From IMG/VR virus record IMGVR_UViG_638341084_000027: DNA of 7,630 nucleotides, one strand, 5' to 3'. Each line of letters starts with the position of its first letter. Position 1 is the stretch's first letter. The notes beneath the pieces are model-generated. The model was not told where the DNA came from and made no database searches. It saw only the letters and a program-made list of their open reading frames with translations. Origin of the DNA: a virus. Its lineage: Duplodnaviria; Heunggongvirae; Uroviricota; Caudoviricetes. Positions 3,853-4,357 of the stretch are shown here, one piece after another. The position numbers and the translations under genes are program-made.

Positions 3853-4087
3853 ACACAAATCCGTTTTCGTCTGGGGCCGGCGAGCATTATTGAGACAAAC
3901 AGCAATGGCTGGTTCCCGGATACAGATGGCGCACTCATCACCGGACTGACCTTTCTTGACCCCAAAGATGCCACACAGGTTCAGGGTTTTTTTCAGCATT
4001 TGCAGGTCAGGTTTGGTGACGGGCCGTGGCAGGATGTTAAGGGGCTGGATGAAGTGGGCAGTGATACAGGCAGAACAGGAGAATGAC

Positions 4088-4357
4088 ATGAACGTACTAA
4101 AAAAACTTATGCAGCGTCTGTGCGGTTGCGGAAAGCATGATGACCGTGAACACGGGGAGTTACTTACAGCACAACTGCGTCTGGGGCCGGCAGACATTCT
4201 GGAGTCAGATGAGAATGGCATTATCCCGGAGCAGGCCAGGGTAATCACGCAGGTGGTGATACTGGATGCGGATAAAAAGCAGATACAGTGTGTGGTAAGA
4301 CCGCTGCAAATCCTGCGTGCTGACGGGACGTGGGAAAATATTGGCGGGATGAAATAG
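4088..4357 (+). CDS. Small hypothetical tail-fiber-associated protein (89 aa) carrying a paralog of the Stf C-terminal motif
   Basis: ATG at 4088 lies 1 nt after the stf stop, with AGGAG 7-8 nt upstream; stop TAG at 4355-4357. The ORF-track entry 3956-4357 is a longer version of the same frame, and I take the portion upstream of 4088 to be a spurious extension overlapping stf. The product (MNVLKKLMQRLCGCGKHDDREHGELLTAQLRLGPADILESDENGIIPEQARVITQVV...DGTWENIGGMK) aligns with the Stf C-terminus ([30 protein letters not shown]...DGPWQDVKG). Not similar to lambda Tfa as I recall it. Confidence 0.55.
   Translation: MNVLKKLMQRLCGCGKHDDREHGELLTAQLRLGPADILESDENGIIPEQARVITQVVILDADKKQIQCVVRPLQILRADGTWENIGGMK

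Follow-up and report, generated by a model that had tools for sequence, protein, structure and literature searches.

The DNA analysed here, a stretch of 7,630 nucleotides to which we refer as the window, comes from a lambdoid prophage of an attaching-and-effacing E. coli, in which it spans the right end of the late region. The complete genomes closest to it are those of E. coli FDAARGOS_1059 (99.9%) and of an O111:H2 strain. The late genes end with a side tail fibre gene (stf), a small ORF encoding an 89-aa protein, and a hairpin, beyond which lies an island of type III effector genes (Table 1). Most of what follows concerns the C-terminal tip of Stf, the PfC domain (PF06820, Phage_fiber_C), and the stand-alone version of the same domain encoded by the small ORF.

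Table 1. Features of the window, numbered from its first nucleotide.
Feature	Position	Strand	Evidence or remark
J, C-terminal part	28-1959		
lom	2029-2628		
stf (EPclA-type side tail fibre), 5' part	2693-3709	+	PF08400 phage_tail_N 230 bits, PF01391 Collagen
Exact tandem duplication of 80 nt in the stf collagen repeats	3468-3547 = 3548-3627	+	100% identity
stf 3' part, shifted frame	3628-4086	+	Translation; stop TGA 4084-4086
PfC domain of Stf (IRFRLGPA...VKGLD), C-terminal trimerising knob	3859-4050	+	PF06820
Shine-Dalgarno AGGAG	4077-4081	+	6 nt before the ATG of the small ORF, inside the stf 3' end
Small ORF, stand-alone 89-aa PfC protein	4088-4357	+	PF06820, phrog_576, WP_001101698.1
Hairpin with flanking A- and U-tracts	4369-4399	+	Directly 3' of the small ORF
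Type III effector island: NleG, EspW, NleG, then an IpaB/EvcA-like protein (TrcA-like chaperone)	3' of the hairpin		

The stf gene of the window has the EPclA architecture, which consists of a PfN domain, an Ala/Ser-rich coiled coil, one Gly-X-Y collagen domain and a C-terminal PfC. Three-frame translation places PfN, the coiled coil and the start of the collagen repeats in the 5' part, whose start codon we took from the CDS of an intact homologue in a related locus (L001). The 3' part contributes the rest of the collagen repeats and the PfC knob, and finishes with an acidic tail of 12 residues. These two parts are in different frames, the tip being in the frame of 3808-4086. The collagen repeats contain an exact tandem duplication (period 80, 2.1 copies in TRF) and, since 80 is not a multiple of 3, stf is frameshifted in the window: the 5' frame is lost in the duplication and reaches a premature stop at 3709. 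In the closest complete genome, the additional 80 nt are missing and stf is an intact gene of 437 aa. The 3' part of the window gene matches the corresponding end of the intact FDAARGOS_1059 stf with 100% identity, and the junction of the duplication was found in none of 5,426 complete E. coli genomes. The original prediction had paired the small ORF with the last ~60 residues of Stf; the homology of the pair stands, but a single uninterrupted frame of about 437 aa is ruled out in the window by the duplication. The hairpin that follows the small ORF has a predicted RNA fold of -20.3 kcal/mol (z = -4.0), which none of 200 shuffled sequences equalled in stability. A simple terminator scan left it unflagged; we regard it as an intrinsic terminator-like element that closes the late operon.

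The motif at the tip of Stf had been predicted to recur in a separate ORF downstream, and both BLASTP and Pfam show this to be so. The tip and the small ORF align with 23 identities over 62 positions (37%; 60% positives, E = 3e-14), and their Smith-Waterman score is 105, as against 20.8 +/- 3.9 for 5000 shuffles (maximum 49; z = 21.7). A profile search had been proposed as a check. It assigned both segments to PF06820 over the full model (positions 1-64 of 64), and scored the Stf tip at 128.9 bits and the small ORF at 119.2 bits, where the gathering cut-off is 25 bits. The shared residues are those of a defined globular domain and not a generic low-complexity feature. The identical 14-nt core noticed in the DNA is also real: CGTCTGGGGCCGGC is present at two places and no others, 3868-3881 and 4178-4191, where 200 shuffles give an expectation of 0, and a repeat search stretches it to 53 nt at 72% identity. 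Over the whole domain, 100 of 186 aligned bases are identical between the two copies (~54%).

The small ORF has the properties of a gene in its own right. It encodes a 27-aa N-terminal extension, made up of a predicted helix (residues 3-12), a conserved L-x-G-C-x-K motif and a flexible linker, followed by the PfC domain (residues 28-89, nt 4169-4354). The phrog_576 profile covers it from end to end (positions 1-89 of 89, E = 8.8e-60) and matches only the domain part of the Stf tip (2.4e-08). As anticipated, it sits where lambda has tfa, its ATG lying 1 nt past the stf stop; of 84 related copies, 82 share this junction, 83 are intact and every one starts with ATG. The expectation that it would not resemble Tfa was likewise correct, a Pfam scan at E<=0.1 having returned PF06820 alone and a search against NCBIfam having given no matches. 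A consensus promoter scan revealed no internal promoter-like site upstream of it. The L-x-G-C motif, which is conserved in the copies of E. coli, C. rodentium and the diverged locus L090 (see below), raised the possibility of a lipoprotein of the Cor/Llp type. This was rejected on inspection by eye: the motif is reached after at most 13 residues, among them K, K, Q and R, and these contain no hydrophobic core.

The comparison of 59 unique alleles by the Nei-Gojobori method gave a dN/dS of 0.041 for the PfC part of the small ORF and of 0.24 for its 27-residue N-terminal part; the value for the PfC of Stf was 0.21, at a similar dS of ~0.12. By this measure purifying selection on the small ORF is strong, and it is tighter than on the Stf tip (0.04 vs 0.21). 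In several related loci, a partial third copy about 1 kb downstream (78% identity) has decayed, with a stop and a 7-nt deletion in the case of L006, and is an example of what becomes of a copy that is not selected. The low dN/dS, the intact copies and the conserved start, together with the decay of this third copy, thus indicate that the small ORF is maintained for its protein.

The small ORF and the tip of Stf are distributed almost identically among complete E. coli genomes: of the 5,426 searched, 698 contain the small ORF, in 6,807 places (median 11 per genome), and 697 the tip, in 6,159 places. In a phage collection, the two go together as well, with 296 records for the small ORF and 297 for the tip, many of them Stx1- and Stx2-converting phages, and a lambda h434 hybrid was also included. 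Siphoviruses with the module are phi330, lambda h434 and 2B8. The pair is not tied to one type of fibre. A collagen-PfC end followed by the small ORF is also found on the 645-aa lateral fibre of Min27, a short-tailed Stx phage, and the diverged locus L090, which is without a match among the complete E. coli genomes, encodes a collagen-less fibre of 212 aa that ends in PfC, followed by an overlapping free PfC ORF of 79 aa. In L090, an AGGAGG lies 6 nt before the ATG of the free copy, this ATG overlaps the end of the fibre gene, and the first 124 residues of the fibre resemble tail fibres of Yersinia and Vibrio phages (a myophage-like N-terminus). Between the window and L090, identity is 64% for the free copies, 40% for the tips and 33-39% for the cross-pairs, and the duplication that gave rise to tip and free copy is therefore old. 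Judging from these loci, both PfC copies are kept together through changes of fibre shaft and of tail type, and we found no Tfa-like gene 3' of the PfC fibres of the window, lambda h434, Min27 or L090 types. The taxonomic range of the family is narrow by the searches made, which find it to be almost absent outside Escherichia: of 1.84 billion representative proteins searched with a profile, only 82 matched, nearly all of them E. coli fragments or chimeras, and a scan of one genome per species (185,579 species) returned only E. albertii and probable contaminants. Copies from C. rodentium were found in a protein search.

Neither the small ORF nor its interpretation as a reservoir of fibre tips is new, since both are already in print (Mondal et al., 2016, PMC5155283) and the ORF is covered by PGAP, which names WP_001101698.1 "phage tail fiber C-terminal domain-containing protein", and by PHROGs, which has it in phrog_576 ('tail fiber protein', 89 aa). 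Mondal et al. described ORF68 of the Stx2 phage Sp5 (89 aa) as a small polypeptide with a phage fibre C-terminus domain, counted it as a late gene that is non-essential for plaques and for lysogenisation of K-12, found the fibre gene ORF67 to be essential and proposed the "reservoir" role for ORF68; they detected no signal for a frameshift by which ORF68 might be fused to the fibre (PMC5155283). Sp5 ORF68 and its equivalents in 933W, Min27 and phi24B ('gp59') are the same gene as the small ORF of the window: the protein is 91% identical, and the domain and the position, 1 nt past a collagen-PfC fibre gene, are shared. The fibre upstream differs, being the podovirus lateral fibre EPclB (645 aa) in the Sp5 type and the lambda-type EPclA (437 aa when intact) in the window. 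We found nothing relevant in the literature under the locus tag of the small ORF, and a paper on the isolation of an EHEC phage that includes virion mass spectrometry leaves it unmentioned.

What is known of PfC itself comes from the fibre. Recombinant EPclA (rEPclA) is a trimeric dumbbell (Ghosh et al., 2012, PMC3368898), and the isolated 64-residue PfC of Stf self-trimerises, as measured by SEC-MALLS, and re-nucleates the collagen helix (PMC3368898); recombinant EPclB was reported there to aggregate end to end, and the downstream ORF goes unmentioned in that study. The PfC domains of EPclA and EPclB belong to the same full-length domain family as the small ORF, and that of Stf is the domain shown to trimerise. 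The small ORF differs from the PfC of EPclA in having neither collagen nor shaft, with the 27-aa extension in their place, in being only 37% identical to it and in being far more conserved.

Two kinds of data bear on the small protein more directly. The virion proteome of phi24B, as given in a 2026 preprint, includes two peptides unique to the small ORF, VITQVVILDADKK and ADGTWENIGGMK, with 3 + 3 spectral counts, as against 2,267 for the fibre (10.64898/2026.04.10.717836). The protein is thus detectable in purified phi24B virions, but far below the stoichiometry of the fibre, at about 2% of it per residue, and it could be carry-over; the trace is also compatible with a loose association with the virion. 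The database used for the mass spectrometry lists hypothetical frameshift fusions of the fibre and the small ORF under the label 'Spike or just gp59?', and the C-terminal knob of the fibre was neither resolved nor predicted in the preprint (10.64898/2026.04.10.717836). Candidate peptides for detecting the small ORF by mass spectrometry are VITQVVILDADK(K), ADGTWENIGGMK and LGPADILESDENGIIPEQ[A/D]R. Structure prediction with AF2 gave one moderately confident model out of five for the small ORF (mean pLDDT 72.6; 81-87 over the domain), which has a six-stranded all-beta domain preceded by a low-confidence helix (residues 3-12) and a disordered linker; the Stf tip gave an unusable model, with a mean pLDDT of 49. 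In Foldseek, the top matches of the small-ORF model were phage tail fibres, with best E values of 0.07 (PDB) and 0.01 (BFVD) that fall below significance, and a sequence search of the PDB gave nothing relevant (the best match was a bacterioferritin, E = 0.22). These modelling results are at most compatible with a fibre-tip fold.

Taken as a gene, the small ORF is, by its start signals and its pattern of substitution, a separately translated and selectively maintained paralogue of the PfC knob of the fibre. As to its function, we tentatively favour the idea that the protein is a trimeric, non-essential accessory at the fibre tip or in fibre assembly, which we consider possible and somewhat short of probable. 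The small ORF closes the late operon, its translation would be coupled to that of stf by the Shine-Dalgarno sequence inside the stf 3' end and the ATG 1 nt past the stop, and it travels with PfC-tipped fibre genes as a fixed two-gene module. From the behaviour of the Stf PfC, we infer that its product may fold into a small all-beta knob and trimerise likewise, and that it may be a physical partner of the fibre tip, associating with the PfC of the fibre through the N-terminal helix and Cys motif, through the knob surface, or both. It might then act as a non-essential accessory, either loosely bound to the tip or as a helper in assembly or against aggregation. The small ORF would in this way fill the genomic place of Tfa and might also do for PfC-tipped fibres what Tfa does for those of the lambda type. 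A bolder and rather doubtful extension of this idea is that free PfC proteins form a new class of fibre partner, which docks on the knob or co-assembles with it, either as an extra knob held non-covalently or as a transient template, functionally replaces Tfa for PfC fibres in siphovirus-, podovirus- and myovirus-like tails, and modulates adsorption on natural hosts that bear O-antigen.

The comparison with Tfa-type proteins (lambda Tfa, P2 G, Mu U, T4 gp38) has two sides. Like them, the small ORF ends the late operon directly 3' of the fibre gene and moves along with the distal domain of the fibre when this is exchanged; in contrast to them, it has no sequence similarity to the Tfa families, is a paralogue of the fibre tip and, where tested, is dispensable for fibre trimerisation and for phage viability. 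The prediction that it might be a chaperone is thus disfavoured in so far as an essential folding factor for the tip is meant, and we consider this very improbable. Its position, its co-transfer with the tip domain across phage types and the presence of no other chaperone gene would all suit such a role, but an obligatory chaperone is hard to reconcile with the trimerisation of EPclA and of PfC alone in a laboratory strain (PMC3368898) and with the plaques and lysogens that Sp5 is reported to form without ORF68, its fibre being essential (PMC5155283). The small protein could otherwise be a soluble decoy or receptor mask, a free knob released on lysis or made by the lysogen that would occupy the surface ligand of the fibre and so stop progeny from sticking to debris or exclude related phages. 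It shares the domain family of the fibre tip, it is not present in virions in stoichiometric amounts and is dispensable for plaques on K-12, and a cytoplasmic protein released by lysis needs no signal peptide. Against this, the region upstream contains no promoter-like site for expression in the lysogen, the 13 residues before L-x-G-C, with their K, K, Q and R, form no hydrophobic signal sequence, and PADLOC gave no matches. Moreover, tip and free copy are unlikely to share a binding surface because they are only 37% identical and the tip varies whereas the free copy is almost invariant (dN/dS 0.21 vs 0.04). We accordingly view a decoy as unlikely. It is hardly credible that the ORF is what module replacement left of an older fibre 3' end, without a function of its own: the tail regions of prophages are mosaic, and databases contain many truncated or fused fragments of the small ORF, but a remnant would not be expected to show a dN/dS of 0.04 at a dS of ~0.12, to be intact in 83 of 84 copies or to keep 64% identity in the distant L090 system, and the one unselected partial copy has indeed decayed.

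Two further explanations would join the small ORF to the fibre itself. A programmed +1 frameshift at the stf stop could yield a minor Stf-small-ORF fusion with two tandem knobs. The small ORF is in the +1 frame, the stop (UGA-C, with AGGAG upstream) is superficially like that of prfB, and one protein (P0143) has tandem PfC-like units in a single chain. However, the P-site codon GAA is unable to re-pair in the +1 frame (AAU), and the Shine-Dalgarno sequence stands at an ideal distance from the ATG for ordinary initiation. L090 departs from the arrangement, its ATG lying 14 nt before the fibre stop and being ill-suited to a shift at the stop, and no junction peptide appears in the part of the phi24B proteome that was examined. 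A prfB-like frameshift was therefore rejected, and we regard such a fusion as highly improbable. Little more can be said for the suggestion that the small ORF is a substrate for homologous exchange, i.e. an intragenomic reservoir from which the stf 3' end acquires a new tip by recombination, and we think this quite improbable. The two copies are direct repeats with an exact 14-nt core, and in one chimera (P0065) the collagen frame runs on into the downstream PfC at a microhomology, GGGGNCCGGCAG, with a reverse chimera (P0121) existing as well. Yet ordinary recombination of the RecA type between the copies is unlikely, because they are only ~54% identical in DNA and have a single exact stretch of 14 nt, and the protein and start signals of the small ORF are under strong purifying selection (dN/dS 0.04). 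Furthermore, P0065 is a single cluster of 4 sequences, lies at the very end of a draft contig of 3.3 kb and lacks a full-length counterpart; its junction occurs in none of the 5,426 complete E. coli genomes, and in protein searches a PfC of the free-copy type was found in no protein longer than 131 aa. A survey for recombinant stf tips, which the original prediction had called for, was carried out over 5.8 billion protein clusters with a collagen/type-B-PfC query and recovered, at full length, only the P0065 chimera itself. The many other short chimeras have the appearance of deletions in prophages undergoing decay, or of artefacts of assembly. At the level of the population, as sampled by these sequence surveys, the reservoir reading is largely refuted. 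The arrangement also recalls two dedicated systems for tip variation. As in the diversity-generating retroelement (DGR) of Bordetella phage BPP-1 (mtd VR/TR), a tip segment is repeated directly downstream of the fibre gene; the copies in the window are ~54% identical and not near-identical, and the downstream copy is a translated, conserved gene. A DGR was rejected on the grounds that the differences affect all bases and not just adenines (100/186 identical) and that the window contains no reverse transcriptase. Invertible segments such as Mu G and P1 C similarly place an alternative fibre C-terminus beside the fibre gene; a segment of the Gin/Cin type was rejected since the repeats are direct only, with no inverted repeat near 3800-4400 and no invertase ORF.

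The pairing of the tip with a free copy is already annotated, has been noted in the literature and is present thousands of times in pathogenic E. coli. What is new is the selection on the small ORF, its own Shine-Dalgarno sequence and ATG, and the preservation of the module on lambda-like, short-tailed Stx and myophage-like fibres. The ~54% DNA identity between the copies, with one draft-contig chimera as the only recombinant fibre, is also new, and so is the observation that the phi24B virion proteome includes trace peptides of the small ORF. The near-absence of sequence support for the idea of a tip-exchange reservoir is a useful negative result; it is a function at the level of the protein that is clearly under selection, and this selection points to binding and assembly assays rather than to recombination assays. 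In EHEC, EPEC, E. albertii and C. rodentium, collagen-like fibres are carried by most of the lambdoid and Stx-converting prophages, and a genome has about 10 copies of them. As a conserved partner gene of these fibres, the small ORF bears on the transmission biology of Stx phages, the fibres being candidates for how phages that carry toxins and effectors find new hosts.

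The stf gene, which encodes the side-tail fibre, is frameshifted by an exact 80-nt tandem duplication (see the table), so that its N-terminal part ends at the stop at 3709 and the C-terminal PfC tip lies out of frame. The 99.9%-identical genome FDAARGOS_1059 does not carry this duplication, and its junction was found in none of 5,426 complete E. coli genomes. Either a private mutation or an artefact of assembly may account for the duplication.

Positions of the features in the window and of the motif in the small ORF
Feature	Position	Strand	Remarks
Exact 80-nt tandem duplication	3468-3627		within stf collagen repeats
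L-x-G-C-x-K motif	4118-4135		small ORF residues 11-16, near the N-terminus
Effector cargo overall	4461-7630		directly 3' of the late-operon terminator
NleG (first)	4461-4940	+	
Palindrome, 30 nt	5000-5029		near-perfect; no spacer between its two 15-nt arms, which are 93% complementary; in the AT-rich spacer from the first NleG to the end of espW
EspW	5070-6128	-	
NleG (second)	6207-6857	-	
IpaB/EvcA-family 'bfpT-regulated chaperone-like' gene	7040-7630		incomplete, continues past the window end

The small stand-alone PfC ORF downstream of stf bears an L-x-G-C-x-K motif (also in P0073 and P0127), which is kept in the copies from E. coli, C. rodentium and the divergent locus L090, the remaining N-terminal segment being variable. 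The motif looks similar to a lipobox, but has no hydrophobic signal core upstream of it; possible roles are metal binding or the formation of inter-chain disulfides within a trimer.

In database proteins, the Stf tip is fused to at least seven unrelated N-terminal sequences, including a repressor, portal-like and tail proteins (P0140, P0148, P0150, P0152, P0154, P0156 and P0159), and the fusion point is nearly constant, just before the same 12-residue stretch. This common point could be a recurrent breakpoint, or else a repeat-boundary artefact of draft assemblies. An apparent reverse chimera, P0121 (92 aa), begins as the small ORF does (N-terminus and first strands) and continues as the Stf PfC domain, of which it has the C-terminal two-thirds; it may be a real recombinant or an artefact. 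In the distant fibre-like protein P0143 (565 aa), four tandem units akin to the second half of PfC (...VVVLDAD...GILQVRRADGTWxEIPALKG) precede collagen repeats; a single chain can therefore carry PfC-like units in series. Near-identical copies of the E. coli-type small ORF or Stf tip also occur on very short contigs assigned to unrelated organisms, Xanthomonas pisi (L087, 725 nt) and a Clostridiales MAG (L088), where they most likely reflect contamination or mis-binning.

In the closest genome, an IS2 insertion separates the small ORF from the first NleG gene. The related locus L006 contains a direct repeat of ~170 nt (copies at 3150-3340 and 4025-4215 of that locus, the second ~875 nt downstream of the first), whose unit runs from the 3' third of the small ORF through the terminator to ~25 nt beyond it; the same repeat is present in L044, L063, L064, L068, L071, L075, L077 and L079. 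An NleG effector gene lies between the two copies, of which the downstream one is degenerate, carrying a stop codon and a deletion of 7 nt. This arrangement suggests that recombination at the end of the late operon inserts or shuffles effector cassettes.
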